Source: Burkholderiaceae bacterium
GTDB taxonomy: Bacteria > Pseudomonadota > Gammaproteobacteria > Burkholderiales > Burkholderiaceae
Direction: 5' to 3'
DNA length: 24,000 bases
Assembly: GCA_018261955.1 (NCBI GenBank)
Contig: JAGTRK010000005.1
Location: 75,748 to 99,747 of the forward strand
Part shown: one piece after another, positions 5,967-20,556 of the stretch
Layout of the letters: each line of letters begins with the position of its first letter
Position numbering within the stretch: the stretch's first letter is position 1
Notes under the pieces: model-generated
Seen by the model: the letters and a program-made list of their open reading frames with translations, nothing else
What the model was told of the DNA's origin: nothing
The model's database searches: none
Translations under genes and position numbers: made by a program

Positions 5967-6632
5967 ATGGCACGCCAAGCACGCGTCTATATTCCCAACA
6001 CCGCGCAACTGGTTCAAGTGCGTGGCAACAACAACGCACCCGTCTTTTTTCAGCCAGAAGACTACGCACAGTGGCAATCGATTGCACGCACCATCGCGCC
6101 AGTCCATGCGGTGGACATCCACGCCTACGCGCTCCTGCCGACACAAATCAATTTACTCGTGACCGCGCACAACGAGCACGCGCTGGGCGCACTGATGCAG
6201 GACTTGGGGCGGCGTTATGTGCGCTACATCAACCGTACCCATCAGCGCACGGGTACATTGTGGGAGGGGCGTTACCGCACCGCATTTATTCAAAACACGC
6301 CGTACGTCATGCGTGCTTATGTATGGCTCGACAGTGGTTTGAATGGACAAAGCGAATACACCTCGGCACTGCGCCACCTCGGACAACACAACCCAGAATT
6401 CATCCGTGACCACAGCGAATATTGGCAGCTGGGCAACACACCGTTTGAACGCCAATCTGCGTATGCCCAACGCATGAGCGAGGGCTTGGTATCGGTGCAC
6501 AGCTCAGAATTAGAACGTGCAGTGCAAACGGGTTGGGCATTGGGCGATACCGAGTTCATCGCAAAGACCGAACAAGCCATCGGGAGGCGCATCAGCCCCG
6601 CGCCGAGGGGGCGACCGAAGAAGCTGGGTTGA
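5967..6632 (+). CDS. IS200/RAYT-like Y1 (HUH) transposase homologue, apparently catalytically degenerate
   Basis: 221 aa. It aligns, from my memory of the COG1943 family consensus, at MARxxRxYxP..., GRRYVRYINRxxxRTGTLWEGRY and a C-terminal PxPRGRPKK. The HUH box position reads HAYALLPTQINLLV (Q-I-N where H-hydrophobic-H is expected). Confidence 0.75.
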   Translation: MARQARVYIPNTAQLVQVRGNNNAPVFFQPEDYAQWQSIARTIAPVHAVDIHAYALLPTQINLLVTAHNEHALGALMQDLGRRYVRYINRTHQRTGTLWEGRYRTAFIQNTPYVMRAYVWLDSGLNGQSEYTSALRHLGQHNPEFIRDHSEYWQLGNTPFERQSAYAQRMSEGLVSVHSSELERAVQTGWALGDTEFIAKTEQAIGRRISPAPRGRPKKLG

Positions 6633-6633
6633 T

Positions 6634-6662
6634 TTGAGTTTTTTATGTTGCGGGTGCATAAT
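6634..6662 (+). promoter_or_regulatory. Candidate sigma70 promoter reading into the cassette array
   Basis: TTGAGT (6634-6639), 17-bp spacer, CATAAT (6657-6662), with TG immediately upstream (6655-6656). It lies in an AT-rich spacer. Sequence match only. Confidence 0.25.
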
Positions 6663-6767: not shown

Positions 6768-6836
6768 ACAAAACAGGATATAAGGCGTAGCTGGGACAGA
6801 ATATGCGTCATTTTTGCCGTATATCCTACGTTAGGT
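6768..6836 (+). other. Left junction of the cassette array: atypical attC-like or attI-like site ending in GTTAGGT
   Basis: ACAAAAC (6768-6774), then AGGATATA (6775-6782), which is an inverted repeat of TATATCCT (6820-6827), then ac + GTTAGGT (6830-6836, fits GTTRRRY). The R''-like box is only 5/7 complementary to R' and no spacer is present, so it is not a canonical attC. Confidence 0.4.
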
Positions 6837-6841
6837 GCTCT

Positions 6842-7180
6842 ATGCCAAGACAACGCACTGATTACGAAAAAGCAGTTGGACAATTAATCTCGGCCATTCA
6901 AAAAGAGTGGACGAAACACGCCGGTGAAGGGGATATTGAAAAGCAAAGTGAGGCTGTAATGTATCGCGCGCATCACTTTTACAAAACAGAAACCCAAGCA
7001 GATTTTGAGCAGTTGCTTCAGGGCGGCGATATAGAAAGGTATCTCGGTTCTGATTGGGTAAAAAAACATCCGCAAATTCGGCAGTATTTTAAGCACGTCG
7101 AAAACTCAGTCACACCTAACCCTGCGCTCAAGCAGGACGCGCCTTCGGCGCGCCTCTTAGCTACACGTTGGGCATCATAG
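6842..7180 (+). CDS. Cassette 1 ORF: hypothetical 112-aa protein, no recognised family
   Basis: ATG 6842 is the first start inside the cassette; the track start at 6803 lies left of the G|TT junction. AGGTG (6833-6837) is a possible SD. The ORF reads through the attC and stops at TAG 7178-7180, 13 nt into cassette 2. Confidence 0.55.
   Translation: MPRQRTDYEKAVGQLISAIQKEWTKHAGEGDIEKQSEAVMYRAHHFYKTETQADFEQLLQGGDIERYLGSDWVKKHPQIRQYFKHVENSVTPNPALKQDAPSARLLATRWAS
7114..7173 (+). other. attC recombination site of cassette 1 (60 nt)
   Basis: ACCTAAC (R'', fits RYYYAAC), cctgc, GCT[C]AAG[C]AGG (L'' with two extrahelical bases) pairing with CCTCTTAGC (L'), a central GC hairpin CGCGC/GCGCG around the cttcg loop, tacac, then GTTGGGC (R', fits GTTRRRY). 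Size and layout resemble classical 60-bp attC sites. Confidence 0.8.
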
Positions 7181-7189
7181 GATCGCGCT

Positions 7190-8092
7190 ATGCGGTGCAT
7201 CTTCTGCAAACAGGACTCCTCCTCGTCTCGTAGCGTTGAGCACATCATGCCGGAGTCGATTGGAAGCAAGAGACGAGTACTGCCCCGTGGCGTAGTCTGC
7301 GACAAATGCAATAACTACTTCGCTCGTGAAATCGAAGGCCCCGTGCTCAGTCACCCCTCAATGAGGAACATCAGGGCTTGGCACCAAGTTCCAAATAAGA
7401 GAGGAAAAATACCGGCATTACAAGGCAATATCGGCGGCACTGATATTGCTGTTGGCTTTCGCCGAGGACGCGACGGAAAACTCGAAATTGAGCCGGAGAA
7501 ACAGCGAAACCAAGAACATGTTACAGCTGAATGGAAAGCTGGTCTCCCAAATGGGTTCATATTCATTGTCGACATGGCCCCACCCAAACGAGAGATGTCT
7601 CGCTTTCTATGCAAGATGGCAATGGAAACTGTCGCTGAACTTCTGACGCACAACGAGGGTGGGACAGAAGCGATGGTTGACGAGAGTTACTTTGACAACA
7701 TTCGAACCTATGTCCGCTATGGAAACAACCTCACTGAGTGGCCGTATTCACAGCGGCGCATATATCCCGATACGACGTTAATGCGTCACCCCGACACAAA
7801 AAAGTGGGTTCCAGTTGGTTTCGGCTGCACAGTATTTTCGACGAAACGCTTCGAAACACTGTTCGTGTTCTGCCTCTACGGTATTGAGTTTGTTCTCAAT
7901 GTCGGTGGCCCCTCTATTCGTGGCTACGAAGAATGGTTGGAAGACCACGGATACATCAGCCCAATGGTTGAACGTCTTGGCTGTCGTCTCGTAACTGAGG
8001 GTGAAGGAAAATCACAACGACACTATCTTCATGGCGACTTCAATTTGCAGAATGGTTTCGCGTTTGACGAACGCCACGGGTACCGCCCATGA
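7190..8092 (+). CDS. Cassette 2 ORF: HNH-motif (beta-beta-alpha-Me, zinc-ribbon) nuclease domain protein with an uncharacterised about 230-aa C-terminal region
   Basis: 300 aa. AGGA SD at 7179-7182. N-terminus MRCIFCK...SVEHIMPESIG...VVCDKCNNYF gives C3xxC6, E17-H18 and C37xxC40-N41, the pattern of CxxC...H...CxxC-N HNH endonucleases. I recognise no motif in the remainder. The stop is 2 nt before the attC. Confidence 0.8.
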   Translation: MRCIFCKQDSSSSRSVEHIMPESIGSKRRVLPRGVVCDKCNNYFAREIEGPVLSHPSMRNIRAWHQVPNKRGKIPALQGNIGGTDIAVGFRRGRDGKLEIEPEKQRNQEHVTAEWKAGLPNGFIFIVDMAPPKREMSRFLCKMAMETVAELLTHNEGGTEAMVDESYFDNIRTYVRYGNNLTEWPYSQRRIYPDTTLMRHPDTKKWVPVGFGCTVFSTKRFETLFVFCLYGIEFVLNVGGPSIRGYEEWLEDHGYISPMVERLGCRLVTEGEGKSQRHYLHGDFNLQNGFAFDERHGYRP

Positions 8093-8093
8093 T

Positions 8094-8162
8094 GCCCAAC
8101 CCATCAATCGAGCGGACCTCGCGCGAAAAGCCGCGCAGCGCCGGTGAACTCAAACGTTAGTT
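8094..8162 (+). other. attC recombination site of cassette 2 (69 nt)
   Basis: GCCCAAC (R''), ccatc, an imperfect GC-rich palindrome (GCGCG 8121-8125 pairs with CGCGC 8132-8136), GGTGAACTcaaac, then GTTAGTT (R'). The 3' half TGAACTCAAACGTTAG closely resembles the 3' end of the aadA-type attC as I remember it. The L''/L' pairing is less clean than in the first attC. Confidence 0.7.
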
Positions 8163-8232
8163 CACCAGCCATAATACCTAGGATAGATTGTGGGTCTTTT
8201 GTTGGGGTTTAAGTCAACTATTCACCACTAAT

Positions 8233-9348
8233 CTACTTATACTTCCGCAAACTCGGCGGACTTTGATATTTCGTAATCGGTGTCGCCGAAAATTTCATCG
8301 GATTACCGACCAAGCGATAACCCTCCTCAGTGCTCACCACCATGTCCCGCGACAACAGTTGCGCATCTTTAAACACGCGGTCGATGGTGTTGATGGGCCC
8401 GCAGGGAAAGCCGTATTGCTCGCCGAGCGTCACCCATTCATCAATGTTTTTGCCCATCATGTGCGGACTCAATGCGGTTTCCAACTCGGCACGGTGCGCC
8501 ACGCGTGCATTGTTGGTGGTAAAGCGTGCGTCGCTTGCCAACTCTGCGCAGCCAGCCGACTGACAAAATTGTACAAACTGCGCATCGTTGCCGATGGCGA
8601 GCATGATGTAGCCGTCTTTGACCCTCATCGGTTGATAGGGCGCAATCGATGGGTGGGACGAGCCTTGGCGCATGGGGATTTGCCCCGACATTAAGTAAGC
8701 CGAGGCTTGATTGGCGAGCATCGCGGCTTGTACGTCAAACAGCGCGATGTCGACGTGTTGCCCTTGCCCCGTGACGTGCCGATGGTTGACCGCAGCGAGT
8801 ATGGCGGTGGTGGCGTACAGCGCGGTCATGAGGTCAACCACCGCCACGCCGACTTTTTGCGGCGCGCCGTCCGCCTCGCCCGTGATGCTCATCAATCCGC
8901 CCATCGCTTGAATCAGCGCGTCGTAGCCAGGGCGGTCTTTGTACGGGCCGCTTTGTCCAAAGCCTGTGATGGAGCAGTAAATAATATTTGGGTTGATTTG
9001 CACAATGCTGGCGTAGTCCAAACCGTATTTTTTCAGACCACTGACTTTGTAGTTTTCGACCAATATGTCTGCAGTTTTAATCAATTCGATGAGTTGCGCG
9101 CGGTCAGTTTCAATGGTGAAATCGAGTAGGATATTGGTCTTATTGCGATTGGCACAAAAATAATAAGTCGCGTCTTGAGAGCCATCGGCTCGTTTGACAA
9201 ACGGCGGCCCCCAGCGACGCGTGTCGTCACCTTTTGGGTGTTCGATTTTAATCACGTTTGCGCCCATATCCGCGAGGTTTTGCGTGGCGAATGGTCCCGC
9301 GAGGATGCGCGACATATCAACAATGGTGAGGTTGGACAATGCAGACAT
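8233..9348 (-). CDS. Family III CoA-transferase (CaiB/BaiF family)
   Basis: 371 aa. N-terminal LTIVDMSRILAGPFATQNLADMGANVIKIEHP signature typical of the family. The substrate cannot be determined from sequence. Confidence 0.85.
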   Translation of the reverse strand: MSALSNLTIVDMSRILAGPFATQNLADMGANVIKIEHPKGDDTRRWGPPFVKRADGSQDATYYFCANRNKTNILLDFTIETDRAQLIELIKTADILVENYKVSGLKKYGLDYASIVQINPNIIYCSITGFGQSGPYKDRPGYDALIQAMGGLMSITGEADGAPQKVGVAVVDLMTALYATTAILAAVNHRHVTGQGQHVDIALFDVQAAMLANQASAYLMSGQIPMRQGSSHPSIAPYQPMRVKDGYIMLAIGNDAQFVQFCQSAGCAELASDARFTTNNARVAHRAELETALSPHMMGKNIDEWVTLGEQYGFPCGPINTIDRVFKDAQLLSRDMVVSTEEGYRLVGNPMKFSATPITKYQSPPSLRKYK

Positions 9349-9432
9349 TTTTTAATATCTTTCAAAGTGTGTGGGATGGCAAAGCGTTATAATCGCACGA
9401 GTGGTAACCCCAAACAAGGCTTTAGTGCAAAT

Positions 9433-9951
9433 ATGAGTGATGAAAACCCAATAACGCAAACAACCCCATTTGAACAAATCGGTGGCGCGCCACGCATTCA
9501 AGAACTGGTGACGCATTTTTATGATTTGATGGAAATTGAACCCAAATACGCCGATTTACGCGCCACGCACCACGAAAATTTAACCGTGACGCGTGAAAAA
9601 TTGTTCGATTTTTTGAATGGCTGGCTCGGTGGCCAGCAGTTATACGTTGAAAAATACGGGCATCCGCGTTTAAAAGCGCGCCACATGCCATTCAAAATCG
9701 GCGTGACTGAGCGCGACCAGTGGGTGGCGTGCATGGCGCAGGCGATGCGCGAAATTGGCGTTGAGGAAAACCTGTTCCAAAAACTCATACTTTCGTTTTA
9801 CGGCACAGCCGAATGGATGCGTAATCAATCCGATGCGGTCGAGGGCGAAGCACGTATGCCGAACCAAGTTGGGATTGAGATTACGGGCGTGCCGAACGCG
9901 ACCACGCTGAAGTTGCAAGCCATTGCCCAAAAATACGAGGTAAAAATTTAA
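9433..9951 (+). CDS. glbO: Group II truncated haemoglobin (trHbO-like)
   Basis: The track ORF starts at 9175 but overlaps the divergent CoA-transferase gene. ATG 9433 gives MSDENPITQTTPFEQIGG...FYDLM...GHPRLKARHMPFKIG..ERDQW, which matches the trHbO pattern. ATG 9376 is an alternative start. The protein has an about 35-aa C-terminal extension. Confidence 0.75.
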   Translation: MSDENPITQTTPFEQIGGAPRIQELVTHFYDLMEIEPKYADLRATHHENLTVTREKLFDFLNGWLGGQQLYVEKYGHPRLKARHMPFKIGVTERDQWVACMAQAMREIGVEENLFQKLILSFYGTAEWMRNQSDAVEGEARMPNQVGIEITGVPNATTLKLQAIAQKYEVKI

Positions 9952-11538: not shown

Positions 11539-12711
11539 ATGTCATTCGAAAACTTATTTTCAAAACGCGCAACCGCCATCAAAAGTTCAGTGATTCGCGA
11601 AATTCTCAAAGTCACAGCCCGACCTGAGGTGATTTCATTTGCGGGTGGTTTGCCATCCGATGCGAGTTTTCCTGTGCCTCAGCTCAAAGCCGCGTTTGAA
11701 AAAGTGCTGAATGATGCACCGCAAGCGGCATTGCAATACTCAACCACTGATGGCTACGCACCGTTGCGCGAATGGGTGGCAAGCGAAAAATCCAAACTCG
11801 GCGCGACCATCACGCCCGACCAAGTCATCATCGTCTCAGGTTCGCAGCAGGCCTTGGACTTGATTGGTAAAGTATTCATCAACGAAGGCGATAAAGTGTT
11901 GGTGGAAACGCCGACGTATTTGGGCGCGTTGCAAGCGTTCGAGTTGTTTTTCCCTGAATTTGTATCCGTGGCTTCGGACGAAGAGGGCTTGGATGCTGCG
12001 CAACTGACCGCTGAGCAAGCGCAGGGCGCGAAGTTTCTCTATGCTTTGCCGAATTTTCAAAATCCGACAGGTCGCTTGATGACCGAAGCGCGCCGTCAAG
12101 CACTCGTTGCGAAAGCGCGTGAGTACAATCTGCTCGTGGTCGAGGACGACCCATATGGCGAATTGTGGTACACCGCCGCACCGCCGCCATCTTTGCTCTC
12201 GCGTATGCCTGAGCGCGTGATACAGATGGGCTCGTTCTCAAAAATCCTCGCCCCTGGATTGCGCTTGGGCTACATCGTCGCGCCTGTGGAAATCGCGCGC
12301 AAATTCGAGCAGGTCAAACAAGCGACTGATTTGCACACCGCCACACTGACGCAACGCGCGGTGTACGAGGTGGTTAAAGATGGCTTTTTAGACGAGCACA
12401 TCCCGAACATTCGCAAACTCTACCATGCGCAAGCGCAAGCCATGCTCGGCGCGTTGGAACAGTATATGCCGAAAAGCGTGACATGGAATCAACCTGCGGG
12501 CGGGATGTTCTTGTGGTTACGATTGCCAGCAGGGGTGGATTCTGAAGCAATATTAAAAACCGCCTTGGCGCGCAATGTCGCCTATGTACCCGGTGTGCCG
12601 TTCTATGCCAATGAACCTGCGCGCAACACCATGCGACTGGCATTCGTCACCGTACCCGAAGACAAAATCCGCGAGGGTGTGAAGGTGTTGGGTGAAGTGT
12701 TTGGAGGGTGA
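11539..12711 (+). CDS. PLP-dependent aminotransferase, class I/II (ARO8 / 2-aminoadipate transaminase-like)
   Basis: 390 aa. AAGGTG SD. FAGGLPSxxxFP N-terminal motif, SGSQQALDL, and the PLP-lysine motif SFSKILAPGLRLGY. Confidence 0.85.
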   Translation: MSFENLFSKRATAIKSSVIREILKVTARPEVISFAGGLPSDASFPVPQLKAAFEKVLNDAPQAALQYSTTDGYAPLREWVASEKSKLGATITPDQVIIVSGSQQALDLIGKVFINEGDKVLVETPTYLGALQAFELFFPEFVSVASDEEGLDAAQLTAEQAQGAKFLYALPNFQNPTGRLMTEARRQALVAKAREYNLLVVEDDPYGELWYTAAPPPSLLSRMPERVIQMGSFSKILAPGLRLGYIVAPVEIARKFEQVKQATDLHTATLTQRAVYEVVKDGFLDEHIPNIRKLYHAQAQAMLGALEQYMPKSVTWNQPAGGMFLWLRLPAGVDSEAILKTALARNVAYVPGVPFYANEPARNTMRLAFVTVPEDKIREGVKVLGEVFGG

Positions 12712-17421: not shown

Positions 17422-18726
17422 TCAAACAATCGCCAAATCAGCACGGCTGTCGGTACTGAGAAAATTCAATATGGTTTCGTAAATTAAATGCAGTTGTTCA
17501 TCCGTGATGCAGTAGGGCGGTATGAGGTACAGCACATTGCCAATGGGGCGCAGCAAAATACCGCGATTTAAAAAATAATGATAAATTTGGTCGCGCTCGG
17601 ACGACAGATAATGATTGCCATCCACAGTTTTGATGGTCACCGCCAATATCGTGCCGCAGGTGCGCACATGCTGCACACGCGGGTGGTGTGCGATGGTGCT
17701 GGCAAATTTCGCATGTTCGGCAGCAATGTGTTGGCGGGCTTGTGTGCACTTATTGGTTAGCAATACATCCAAACTCGCCAACGCTGCCGCGCAAGCGAGC
17801 GGATTGGCGGTGTATGAGTGTCCGTGATAAAACGCATGGTGTACATCGTCGCTGTAAAACGCGTCATAAAGCACTTGGCTGCACAGTGTGACTGCCAGCG
17901 GCAACGTACCGCCCGTTAAACCTTTGGACAGGCACATCATGTCGGGCTGCGCACTGAGTTGCTCACAGGCAAACAATGTCCCCGTGCGCCCAAAGCCCGT
18001 CATCACTTCATCGACTATCACATATGCGCCTGCTGATTGGGTTGCGTGGAACAGTTGCGAGAGTACGCCAGCGTCGTGCATCTGCATACCTGCCGCGCCT
18101 TGCACCAGAGGCTCTACCATCAGCGCGGCCACGTCACCTGTATCCAAAACAGCGCGCAAAGCGTTGAGACTGGCACTGGCATTGTCAAGCGTTGGCACGG
18201 GTATGGTCGCCACGGTAAACAACTTGTCATCAAACGGTGCGGTGAACAGGCCGCGCCCGCTGGTCGCCATGGCACCAAAGGTATCACCGTGATAACTGCC
18301 CTCTAAAACCACGATGGTGCTGCGTGGCGCACCGCGGTTGTGAAAGGCTTGCAGTGCCATTTTGACCGCGATTTCAGTCGCGCAGGAGCCATTGTCGGAG
18401 TAAAAAACTTTGCGCATATTCGCAGGACTAATTTCGAGTAAACGCTCTGCCAAACGCACCGCTGGCTCATGGGTCAGTCCTGCAAACATGCAGTGTGCCA
18501 AATTTTGCGCCTGTGTAAAAATCGCTTGCGCAATCGCTGGATGCGAATGTCCATGCAGGTTGACCCACCACGAAGAGACCGCGTCGATATAGGCTTTACC
18601 CTGCTCGTCGTACAAATACACACCTTCACCACGCACGATGCCAAGTGCGCTTGGGCGCAGTTTCATCGGAGTGTAGGGATGCCAAATGATTTGGCTATCG
18701 CGCTCAGAAATTGAAGGTTTATTCAT
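17422..18726 (-). CDS. bioA: Adenosylmethionine-8-amino-7-oxononanoate aminotransferase
   Basis: 434 aa from ATG 18726 (MNKPSISERDSQIIWHPYT). The track start at 18921 runs through bioD. Class III aminotransferase motifs and DEVMTGFGRTG. The start overlaps the bioD stop by 8 nt. Confidence 0.93.
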   Translation of the reverse strand: MNKPSISERDSQIIWHPYTPMKLRPSALGIVRGEGVYLYDEQGKAYIDAVSSWWVNLHGHSHPAIAQAIFTQAQNLAHCMFAGLTHEPAVRLAERLLEISPANMRKVFYSDNGSCATEIAVKMALQAFHNRGAPRSTIVVLEGSYHGDTFGAMATSGRGLFTAPFDDKLFTVATIPVPTLDNASASLNALRAVLDTGDVAALMVEPLVQGAAGMQMHDAGVLSQLFHATQSAGAYVIVDEVMTGFGRTGTLFACEQLSAQPDMMCLSKGLTGGTLPLAVTLCSQVLYDAFYSDDVHHAFYHGHSYTANPLACAAALASLDVLLTNKCTQARQHIAAEHAKFASTIAHHPRVQHVRTCGTILAVTIKTVDGNHYLSSERDQIYHYFLNRGILLRPIGNVLYLIPPYCITDEQLHLIYETILNFLSTDSRADLAIV

Positions 18727-19375
18727 GTGTCGTCTTCCACGGGATAAGTGCGGCTGGTAGCTTGTGTGCCAATCGTTTGGCTTGTATTTGAATGCTGTCG
18801 CGTGAGATGTGGGGCAATTCATCAATGCGCGCCAATATGGGCACACAGGCATACTCGCTGATGAATTGTTCGGAGTCGGTGTTGGGCTCGCCATTGACCA
18901 GCAGTCCAAGCAGATGCACACCGCGAATGTTCAGAGCGTCAATCGCTGAGAGCGTGTGTGAAATACTGCCGAGGTAGTGACGCACCACCAACAGCGTTGG
19001 CAGGGCAAAATGCGCCAATACATCGGCCACTGTATGTTGCTGCGTCATCGGCGAGCACACACCACCTGCGGTTTCGATGAGCAGTGGGCGCGTGGTTTGC
19101 GGCGGCGTGAAATCGTTTAATGCAAGCACAGTATGTTCGGCACGAGCCGCAGCATGGGGCGATGCCGCTTGTTCAAGGCGATGCGCTTCAGGGTGCAGGC
19201 ACACATCGGTGCGTGTGATGAGTGCGCGCACGCGCAGGCTGTCTGAATGCGTCAATTTACCTGCTTGAATCGGTTTCCAATAATCACAGCCCAAAGCCTG
19301 AACCATGACCGCTGAACAAATGGTTTTGCCGATGTCTGTGTGTATGCCTGTGAGTGCGAGCGTGCGTGTGTTCAT
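18719..19375 (-). CDS. bioD: Dethiobiotin synthetase
   Basis: 218 aa from ATG 19375 (MNTRTLALTGIHTDIGKT P-loop). The start overlaps the bioF stop (TAATG). Confidence 0.85.
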   Translation of the reverse strand: MNTRTLALTGIHTDIGKTICSAVMVQALGCDYWKPIQAGKLTHSDSLRVRALITRTDVCLHPEAHRLEQAASPHAAARAEHTVLALNDFTPPQTTRPLLIETAGGVCSPMTQQHTVADVLAHFALPTLLVVRHYLGSISHTLSAIDALNIRGVHLLGLLVNGEPNTDSEQFISEYACVPILARIDELPHISRDSIQIQAKRLAHKLPAALIPWKTTHE

Positions 19376-20556
19376 TATGTTCGTACCGCCTCCCACAAAG
19401 TGTGAGACAGTAAGCGTATTTCGTCATGCGTGTTGAATGCGTGCAGACAGATGCGCAAGCGTTCTGTGCCCGCAGGCACGGTTGGGGCAAAAATGGGGCG
19501 CACGTCCAATTGCGCGGCGTGCAGTTGTTTGACCACTTCATGCGTTCGCGTCACATCGCCAATTACCAAACCTTGAATCGGTGTGCTGCTCTGAAGCCAT
19601 TGCACTCGGTATTTGTGCCACGGGTATTGTGCGACGAGTTGGGTAAAATATGTGATGCGCTCGCGCAATTGCGCTTGTGCATATCTGTCGGTTTGTAAAC
19701 GCGCGTATGCTTGGGCTATGGTGGCGTAACTCCAAGGTGGTAGGGCAGTGCTGTAGATAAACGGGCGTGCAAAATTGATGAGTAAATCAATCAACACTTG
19801 AGAGCCGACCACCACCGCACCATGACAGCCCATGGCTTTGCCAAAGGTGTGGATACGTACCGCGACATTGGGGTGTAAGGCTTGTGTCAAACCTTCACCC
19901 TGCGCGCCGATGATGCCCGTTGCGTGTGCCTCGTCAATTACAATGAGTGCGTCACACGTCTGAGCCAATGTCACGATATCTGCCAATGGCGCGATATCAC
20001 CGTCCATTGAATACACCGATTCCAAAACGATGACGGTGTTTTTGCCAGAAAATTGCTCAAGTAATTGAGCCAAATGTGCGCAATTGTTGTGCTGAAATTT
20101 ATAAATTGCACGGCTCATGGACAGACGCATACCGTCGATTAAACTGGCGTGACACAATTCATCGTGTAAAAAAACCGTGTGTCGATCTCCAATCGACGCG
20201 AGTACGCCCAAGTTTGCATCAAACCCCGAATTAAATATCAAGGCGGCTTCAGTTTGATGAAATTGTGCAATGGCTGATTCAAGCGCGCTGATGGTGTTGG
20301 ATTGTCCAGACAATAAACGCGAGCCTGTCGCGCCATGTGCATCACCAAACTGTTGTGCCAGTATAAAAAATACATTGTCGCTGCGGTGGATGGGCGGGCT
20401 CGAGCGCGCCCAGCCCAAGTAATCATTGGAGACAAAGTCAATCGCCAAGGGCGTGCGCAAGCGGCGTTTTTGCTGTGCTTGTTCGCGCTGGTCTAAACGC
20501 TCTTGCCACTGCTGTTCCAGTGTGTAAATGGGGTTGGGTAGGTGTGAGGTATCCAT
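19375..20556 (-). CDS. bioF: 8-amino-7-oxononanoate synthase
   Basis: 393 aa. Alpha-oxoamine synthase motifs: GATGSRLLSG, VIDEAHATG and the PLP lysine in HTFGKAMG. Confidence 0.9.
   Translation of the reverse strand: MDTSHLPNPIYTLEQQWQERLDQREQAQQKRRLRTPLAIDFVSNDYLGWARSSPPIHRSDNVFFILAQQFGDAHGATGSRLLSGQSNTISALESAIAQFHQTEAALIFNSGFDANLGVLASIGDRHTVFLHDELCHASLIDGMRLSMSRAIYKFQHNNCAHLAQLLEQFSGKNTVIVLESVYSMDGDIAPLADIVTLAQTCDALIVIDEAHATGIIGAQGEGLTQALHPNVAVRIHTFGKAMGCHGAVVVGSQVLIDLLINFARPFIYSTALPPWSYATIAQAYARLQTDRYAQAQLRERITYFTQLVAQYPWHKYRVQWLQSSTPIQGLVIGDVTRTHEVVKQLHAAQLDVRPIFAPTVPAGTERLRICLHAFNTHDEIRLLSHTLWEAVRT

Follow-up and report, generated by a model that had tools for sequence, protein, structure and literature searches.

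The element described here lies in a 24,000-nucleotide stretch of DNA (hereafter, the window) from a Burkholderiaceae bacterium (contig JAGTRK010000005.1, positions 75,748 to 99,747, forward strand). It consists of two consecutive integron cassettes preceded by a short attI-like sequence. The element is an attC-site cluster without an integrase (CALIN), which is real and well delimited and belongs to an ordinary, known, and common kind, and its two units, at 6831-7167 and 7168-8156, are genuine integron cassettes. The locus is probably the remnant of a betaproteobacterial (IntI1/IntI3-related) chromosomal integron, comprising an attI site of about 60 nt (6773-6832) and the two cassettes in their usual orientation. 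The strongest evidence for its integron nature is the mobility of the cassettes, which recur as units in other arrays. An earlier note, made from the sequence alone, had described two units on the + strand, each with an open reading frame (ORF) and an attC site, and every motif quoted there was found where it had been placed.

Cassette boundaries and recurrence in other arrays

The crossover motifs read G/TTAGGT (6830/6831-6836) and G/TTGGGC (7167/7168-7173), and the remaining R boxes are ACCTAAC (7114-7120), GCCCAAC (8094-8100), and GTTAGTT (8156-8162). Each ORF end has the arrangement that characterizes attC sites, namely, an imperfect palindrome of 57 to 141 nt, immediately 3' of a promoterless ORF, bounded by RYYYAAC and GTTRRRY. 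The R' box of the second site, GTTAGTT, departs from the consensus at one position, as is expected at the last attC of an array. In integrons, the crossover falls after the G of the core site and before its TT, and the first bases of a cassette should therefore complement its own R'' box. Both cassettes obey this rule: TTAGGT complements ACCTAAC, and TTGGGC complements GCCCAAC.

The earlier note had called this argument decisive. The rule itself holds for both cassettes, but its decisiveness does not. Exactly one chain of two units obeying the rule is present in the window, at the 6831-8156 cassettes, and such a chain arises by chance in 4.5% of 1000 shuffled windows, so that the argument by itself amounts to a P value of about 0.05. 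Pairs of RYYYAAC and GTTRRRY spaced 50 to 150 nt apart occur 12 times in the window, compared to 4.6 ± 3.5 times in the shuffles. Because bare motifs are weak evidence, the significance of the locus rests on models and comparisons.

The comparisons place the cassette boundaries at the crossover points. A 509-nt metagenomic contig (L091) encodes an 88% identical homologue of the protein of cassette 1, and its homology to the window extends from the GTTAGGT core, with three shared upstream bases (TAC), to the ...CACGTT of the first attC site. Outside the cassette, this contig carries a different canonical attC upstream and different sequence downstream. Likewise, cassette 2 and its counterpart in a second locus (L001) share 83.6% nucleotide identity over 7168-8156 and 33% on either side.

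By definition, a CALIN has two or more attC sites within 4 kb, and an integron integrase is absent within 4 to 10 kb. Here, the two attC sites lie 920 nt apart, with 6.8 kb upstream and 15.8 kb downstream free of an integrase. Pfam scans of the large ORFs revealed no integrase-like ORF or fragment in the 24 kb, and a tblastn search of the window with IntI1 gave a best E value of 0.8, in agreement with the earlier statement that no tyrosine-recombinase integrase is present. The coordinates of the features are listed in Table 1.

Table 1. Features of the two-cassette array (positions within the window)
Feature	Position	Strand	Description
Probable attI remnant	6773-6832	+	Upstream box ACAGGATATAAGGCG, core GAATATGCGTCATTTTTGCCGTATATCCTACGTT; crossover between G6830 and T6831
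Cassette 1	6831-7167	+	337 nt, from TTAGGT to the G of the attC1 R' box
ORF1	6842-7180	+	112 aa, reads through attC1; TAG stop at 7178-7180
attC1	7114-7173	+	60 nt; R'' ACCTAAC, R' GTTGGGC
Cassette 2	7168-8156	+	989 nt, from TTGGGC to the G of the attC2 R' box
ORF2	7190-8092	+	300 aa, stop 1 nt before R''
attC2	8094-8162	+	69 nt; R'' GCCCAAC, R' GTTAGTT; L box weakly paired

Models and folds of the attC sites

Thirteen reference attC sites were taken from class 1 integrons on PLSDB plasmids, using IntI1 as the query: aadA1, aadA2, aadA16, aadB, orfF, aacA4, VIM-2, dfrA5, dfrA12, dfrA14, dfrA27, aac(6')-29a, and arr-3. Two sites from an unrelated array (L007) were added to give 15 reference sites. 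A half-site position weight matrix (PWM) with a flexible spacer was built from all 15 and used to score both strands. Over the 24 kb, attC2 ranks first (34.5 bits) and attC1 second (20.5 bits), while the maximum per shuffled window (100 windows) averages 14.7 bits, with a 95th percentile of 20.2 and a highest value of 26.0. A covariance model (R1), which is a proxy and not the curated model of IntegronFinder, was built from 12 independent attC sites trimmed to their conserved ends; its top match in the window is attC1 at 7114-7173 (+), at full length and with 12.6 bits.

The layout of attC1 is R'' ACCTAAC, spacer CCTGC, L'' GCT[C]AAG[C]AGG..., L' ...CCTCTTAGC, spacer TACAC, and R' GTTGGGC. When combined with the cassette's own R' box, the bottom strand gives the canonical fold (-17.1 kcal/mol), in which an unpaired spacer separates the 7-bp R box from the L box. 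A bulged G, G, and T on the '' arm of the L box represent the extrahelical bases, and the earlier description of a 60-nt site with such bases holds. The fold of attC2 has a bulged central stem and forms its R box only with the cassette's own R' box. When flanking sequence is included, the fold z-scores are modest and unremarkable.

By-eye counts show that the 3' end of attC2 is like the aadA1 attC at 16 of 21 positions and that its 5' end is like the aacA4 attC at 16 of 19. This supports the claim of a 69-nt site with an aadA-like 3' half. The R'' box and 5' half of attC2 are conserved in L001, and its L box is degraded relative to the orthologue there. In addition, an inverted repeat, GCCGGTGAACT / AGTTCACCAGC (8140-8150 / 8159-8169), spans the R' box of attC2, pairing the L' region with chromosomal bases past the crossover and competing with the attC fold when the flank is included. 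It was discarded as a meaningful feature, as it is no more than expected by chance: 15 comparable repeats occur in the 2-kb region.

These results bear on a reading in which the locus has nothing to do with integrons. The palindromes would then be repetitive extragenic palindromic (REP) repeats of a neighboring Y1-transposase (RAYT-like) gene, or terminators, and the core motifs would have arisen by chance. Such a gene indeed ends 140 nt upstream of the attI remnant, though its family scores are weak, and the motif-only statistic is weak as well (P value of approximately 0.05). However, the two palindromes are unlike each other and have no further copies in the window. Both match attC models derived from resistance-integron sites, the homology breakpoints in unrelated arrays fall at G/TT, and the window has no match in Rfam at gathering thresholds. 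With the breakpoints shared with L091 and L001 and the half-site PWM scores, this reading is refuted and retains virtually no probability.

The left junction and its attI family

A first clue to the nature of the left junction was a resemblance between the 42-nt stretches that precede cassette 1 in the window and the homologous HNH cassette in L001. A search pattern drawn from the window and L001 copies returned 20 loci in a metagenome scan (L106-L125). In three of these (L116, L117, and L122), a divergent integrase gene has its start codon about 73 nt from the element and encodes a protein 62 to 63% identical to IntI1. Integrases of this type score 484 bits with TIGR02249 (cut-off of 265) and 467 bits with NF011946 (cut-off of 435) in NCBIfam, and their named relatives are found in Rhodocyclaceae, Gallionella, Sulfuricella, Denitratisoma, and Propionivibrio. 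L116 has eight attC sites downstream of the element, and L117 has ten. In both arrays, each R'' box complements the preceding R' box, beginning at the element's own TACG/TT, and the 7-mer of the first cassette's own R'' box was located downstream in 12 loci. Because a divergent intI adjoins the element and the arrays begin at its G/TT, the element is the attI site of this integron family.

From 14 metagenomic loci, a profile of the 134-nt attI module was built and run with nhmmer. It matches the window at 6773-6832 (E value of 1.1e-6; model positions 76 to 134), and the match ends at the final model position, at the TT two bases past the crossover. The upstream box, which was outside the search pattern, reads ACAGGATATAAGGCG in the window, compared to cCaGcttAtacggca in the family. 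In complete members, the 5' end of intI lies within model positions 1 to 75, together with promoter-like hexamers, a Shine-Dalgarno sequence, and the first part of a short leader ORF. By the attI profile, the promoter-like region of the family, where a Pc promoter would be sought, is absent from the window. One promoter-like site of consensus level is present at 6634-6662, which is no more than expected by chance.

Two other identities of the left element were considered and rejected. With the PWM for attC 3' half-sites, its 3' half reaches 11.8 bits (per-position P value of 5e-5), and the half-site PWM found no attC 5' half there; a truncated attC was dropped for lack of this half-site and is superseded by the attI result. 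The same holds for a coding remnant, as third codon positions are not favored by the substitutions that distinguish the window from L001.

As the attI remnant adjoins the first cassette, we favor an integron that lost, or was separated from, its intI over capture of the cassettes at a secondary chromosomal site (attG). In the latter case, an integrase acting in trans would have put a two-cassette circle, or two successive cassettes, into an ordinary chromosomal GTT site, and the locus would never have been an integron platform. Insertion at GWT genome sites is efficient and has been proposed as an origin of small CALINs (Loot et al., bioRxiv 10.1101/2022.09.11.507474); the G/TT junctions on both sides and the housekeeping genes in the flanks fit this route. 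However, an attG site is unrelated host DNA that has only GWT in common and would leave such DNA at the left junction, whereas here the 60 nt left of the crossover show homology to the attI of integrase-linked integrons (E value of 1.1e-6), with the match ending at the TT past the crossover. Capture at attG is accordingly quite improbable. The earlier note had offered both explanations, a CALIN or capture at a secondary site; the former stands on the definition given above, and the latter is disfavored by the identification of 6773-6832 as an attI remnant.

Several observations were made on the attI modules of the metagenomic loci, where neighboring genes were named by eye from N-terminal sequences. 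The oriented element positions are 4554-4587 in L116 and 1434-1467 in L120. The module stands at many chromosomal positions unrelated to one another, following smpB in L111 and L125, priA in L114 and L121, hypC in L118, and a uvrB-like gene in L120, where about 45 intI codons are retained. It is also located after toxin-antitoxin pairs in L106, L110, L121, and L107. The apparent C-terminal end of priA occurs twice in L121 (oriented positions 2-214 and about 900-1090), flanking a PIN toxin-antitoxin pair upstream of attI, and this repeat may be a duplication from the toxin-antitoxin insertion. The family also has a short ORF, which carries a Shine-Dalgarno sequence of its own (MSQIIRQSLPEYPAFLPSTLRW...) and crosses attI into the first cassette (about 4475-4590 in L116). 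This leader ORF is fused in frame to the first cassette ORF in L124 (58-837), L121 (1104-1703), and L110 (1724-1990; all oriented).

Cassette genes and codon usage

ORF1 encodes a small protein without family assignment; no match was found in Pfam, NCBIfam, PADLOC, or PHROGs. The protein is 100% identical to MBS1175226.1 (H6R05_1357) of a Burkholderiaceae bacterium metagenome-assembled genome (MAG). The codons for its last approximately 19 residues lie in attC1 and in the opening bases of cassette 2. These residues are regarded as attC encoded because a 74% identical homologue without an attC (L090) diverges at R''.

Residues 3 to 55 of ORF2 match PF14279 (HNH_5; Pfam E value of 1.3e-10). The remaining approximately 240 residues are uncharacterized and confidently modeled: the AlphaFold2 model has a mean predicted local distance difference test (pLDDT) score of 90 and a predicted TM (pTM) score of 0.88. 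A Foldseek search of this model against the PDB gave no match below an E value of 0.1. Invariant Cys, His, and Asn residues occur only within approximately the first 45 residues. The cassette proteins, including ORF2, have no PADLOC, NCBIfam, or PDB-sequence match, and the only PHROGs result among them was an unnamed family.

The 743 homologues of ORF2 have a patchy taxonomic spread. Six loci (L001-L006) carry a 90% identical homologue placed between other genes. In two others (L007 and L008), GTTGGGC or GTTGGAC stands before the homologue and an attC after it, and the surroundings, with many small same-strand ORFs, toxin-antitoxin genes, and insertion sequence genes, resemble those of a long cassette array; an energy-threshold attC finder recovered only two sites in L007 and L008. 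The HNH cassette of L001-L006 looks fixed in place, because the R' box of its attC (L001, 4094-4150) reads GCTACTG, without GTT, and shares bases with the stop codon of a convergent recQ. The HNH_5-domain family of ORF2 is widespread and repeatedly cassette borne. It is a reasonable candidate for a defense or addiction function, and a nuclease-based role of this kind is our guess.

Both cassette genes have a foreign codon usage. That of ORF2 is the most atypical of 19 genes (z-score of -3.8), with raised frequencies of CTC (0.39 versus 0.19 in the flanking genes), TTC (0.62 versus 0.26), GCT (0.55 versus 0.08), and CGA (0.22 versus 0.07). The foreign appearance that the earlier note had assigned to cassette 2 by eye is thereby put into numbers. 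ORF1 has a z-score of -2.2.

Genomic context and nearest relative

The array belongs to a Burkholderiaceae genome of freshwater type and lies among genes that are of the housekeeping type according to Pfam and NCBIfam scans, as the earlier note had proposed. They include ppsR, ppsA, prmC (TIGR03534, 302 bits), and a Y1-transposase-like gene, as well as genes for a family III CoA-transferase and a globin, rmuC, ligA, and bio genes. The listed globin ORF (9175-9951) and bioA ORF (17422-18921) overlap their neighbors (8233-9348 and 18719-19396, respectively) by about 170 to 200 nt, and the true start codons of both are probably further downstream.

The Y1-transposase-like gene occupies 5967-6632, and the DNA between it and the attI remnant is A+T rich. 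Its scores are 22.6 bits in Pfam and 25.7 bits in NCBIfam, compared to a RAYT cut-off of 80. In appearance, it is a Y1-transposase-like gene that has been domesticated or has diverged, and not an active REP transposase.

The nearest relative, and the only close one in the genome collection, is a Hydromonas MAG (L010), whose CoA-transferase is 76% identical. Its gene order is kept, running from ppsA, prmC, and the Y1-like gene to the CoA-transferase, globin, rmuC, and aminotransferase genes; the Y1-like gene (12545-13201 in L010) adjoins prmC in both, with 62% identity. Both cassette genes are absent from L010, and a 7-kb ABC-transporter block is found in their place. This comparison shows a variable interval and provides no empty site. 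Downstream of the Y1-like gene in L010, positions 12171-12285 (- strand) hold a good attC 5' half, CTCGAAC ATATC GTTCGAGCGG, with 14.4 bits, an L' CCGCTCAAC that matches this 5' half, and ATTAGCA in the place of R'. The sequence at this syntenic position may derive from an attC that has decayed; it gave no match with the covariance model or the attI profile.

Origin and present state of the array

The course of events that we infer is as follows. Each cassette would formerly have been circular, and the integrase would have recombined its folded bottom-strand attC hairpin with attI or with a resident attC. Subsequently, intI and the adjoining region, which in complete members holds the putative cassette promoter, would have been deleted or split off by a rearrangement. 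Without an integrase provided in trans, the array is probably static. Expression, if any, could come from read-through of the co-oriented upstream prmC and Y1-transposase-like genes or from a weak local promoter (6634-6662). The diverged attI boxes and the degraded L box of attC2 suggest decay.

A number of results weigh against an integron remnant of this origin. For the attC sites, the covariance model gave attC1 an E value of only 0.73, where IntegronFinder accepts E values of <1, and did not detect attC2 in the window. The model is insensitive, as real dfrA5 and dfrA14 attC sites were missed and a held-out arr-3 attC reached only 15 to 19 bits. In the bottom-strand fold check proposed in the earlier note, attC1 gave the expected structure, whereas attC2 is weak: its R box forms only with the cassette's own R' box, and its L box is poorly paired, with about 3 bp and mismatches. 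At the left junction, the assignment as a probable attI remnant is drawn from 60 nt, that is, 60 of the 134 module positions; model positions 1 to 75 are missing from the window, and the conserved ACGGC boxes depart from the family consensus. No fragment of an intI pseudogene that would prove loss in situ was found in the 24 kb, and the absence of an integrase applies to the 24-kb window, so that one may exist elsewhere in the genome. Finally, no empty site was found, the intergenic DNA of L010 being unalignable with the window. The earlier wording that the array was "inserted" is consequently not demonstrated: instead of a clean empty site, the nearest relative has its different 7-kb gene block there.

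A split integron still in service is possible, yet we hold it to be unlikely. A rearrangement would have separated intI from the array, and an integrase encoded elsewhere in the genome would work on the array in trans. The retained attI homology and the intact R'' and R' cores of both attC sites are consistent with this, as is the finding that half of all CALINs occur in IntI-encoding genomes (Cury et al. 2016, PMC4889954). Moreover, the attI module lacks an adjacent intI in eight of the ten metagenomic loci (L106-L125) with enough upstream sequence. However, of the attI copies seen, that of the window has diverged furthest and is without the promoter and leader part, the attC2 L box is degraded compared to the L001 orthologue, and the data, which cover the window only, offer no direct evidence for this arrangement. 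A broader version of the idea, in which orphan attI platforms, compact modules of a promoter-like region, a leader ORF, and attI, are maintained as working sites for docking and expression and an integrase encoded elsewhere serves them in trans, is doubtful. If true, betaproteobacterial genomes would run several cassette platforms from one integrase, and the window copy would be a decaying example.

Returning to the remnant of a chromosomal integron, its interest lies in the legible origin. The origin of a CALIN usually cannot be told because the attI sites of non-clinical integrons are not known. IntegronFinder recognizes attI sites of classes 1 to 3 only, by exact match (Cury et al. 2016, PMC4889954). 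The locus is a clean example in which a lost or separated integrase can be distinguished from capture at a secondary site. Beyond the two uncharacterized genes that the cassettes carry, the analysis identifies an attI family for environmental betaproteobacterial integrons, whose module is usually without an adjacent integrase in metagenomic contigs, and its profile could serve to classify other betaproteobacterial CALINs.

Comparison with known systems

Like other CALINs, the locus has two or more same-strand attC sites within 4 kb, lacks a nearby intI, and carries non-resistance cassettes of uncharacterized function. Two attC sites are the commonest size, found in 1362 of 2961 CALINs (Loot et al., bioRxiv 10.1101/2022.09.11.507474), and most CALINs have no recognizable intI pseudogene (Cury et al. 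2016, PMC4889954). It differs in that its origin can be read from the attI remnant attached to the first cassette.

Insertions of the SALIN/attG type, as described by Loot et al., likewise place one or a few cassettes among housekeeping genes, integrase free and with G/TT junctions. In contrast to attG, which is genomic DNA with only GWT in common, the left junction of the window is homologous to attI.

A further likeness is that the short leader ORF of the family crosses attI and is sometimes fused to the first cassette gene (L110, L121, and L124). The attI1 site of class 1 integrons also carries a short leader ORF (ORF-11). However, there is no detectable sequence similarity between attI1 and the family attI, and in the window the leader is lost, with a stop codon at the crossover in that frame.

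Further parallels are the betaproteobacterial chromosomal integrons L116, L117, and L122. Unlike these, the window is without intI, the intI 5' end, the promoter-like boxes, the Shine-Dalgarno sequence, and the leader ORF, and its attI boxes are mutated. What it shares with them is the attI core with its upstream box, the TACG/TT crossover, short attC sites (57 to 70 nt, with ...TACGTT ends), and the chain rule, under which the bases that open a cassette complement that cassette's own R'' box.

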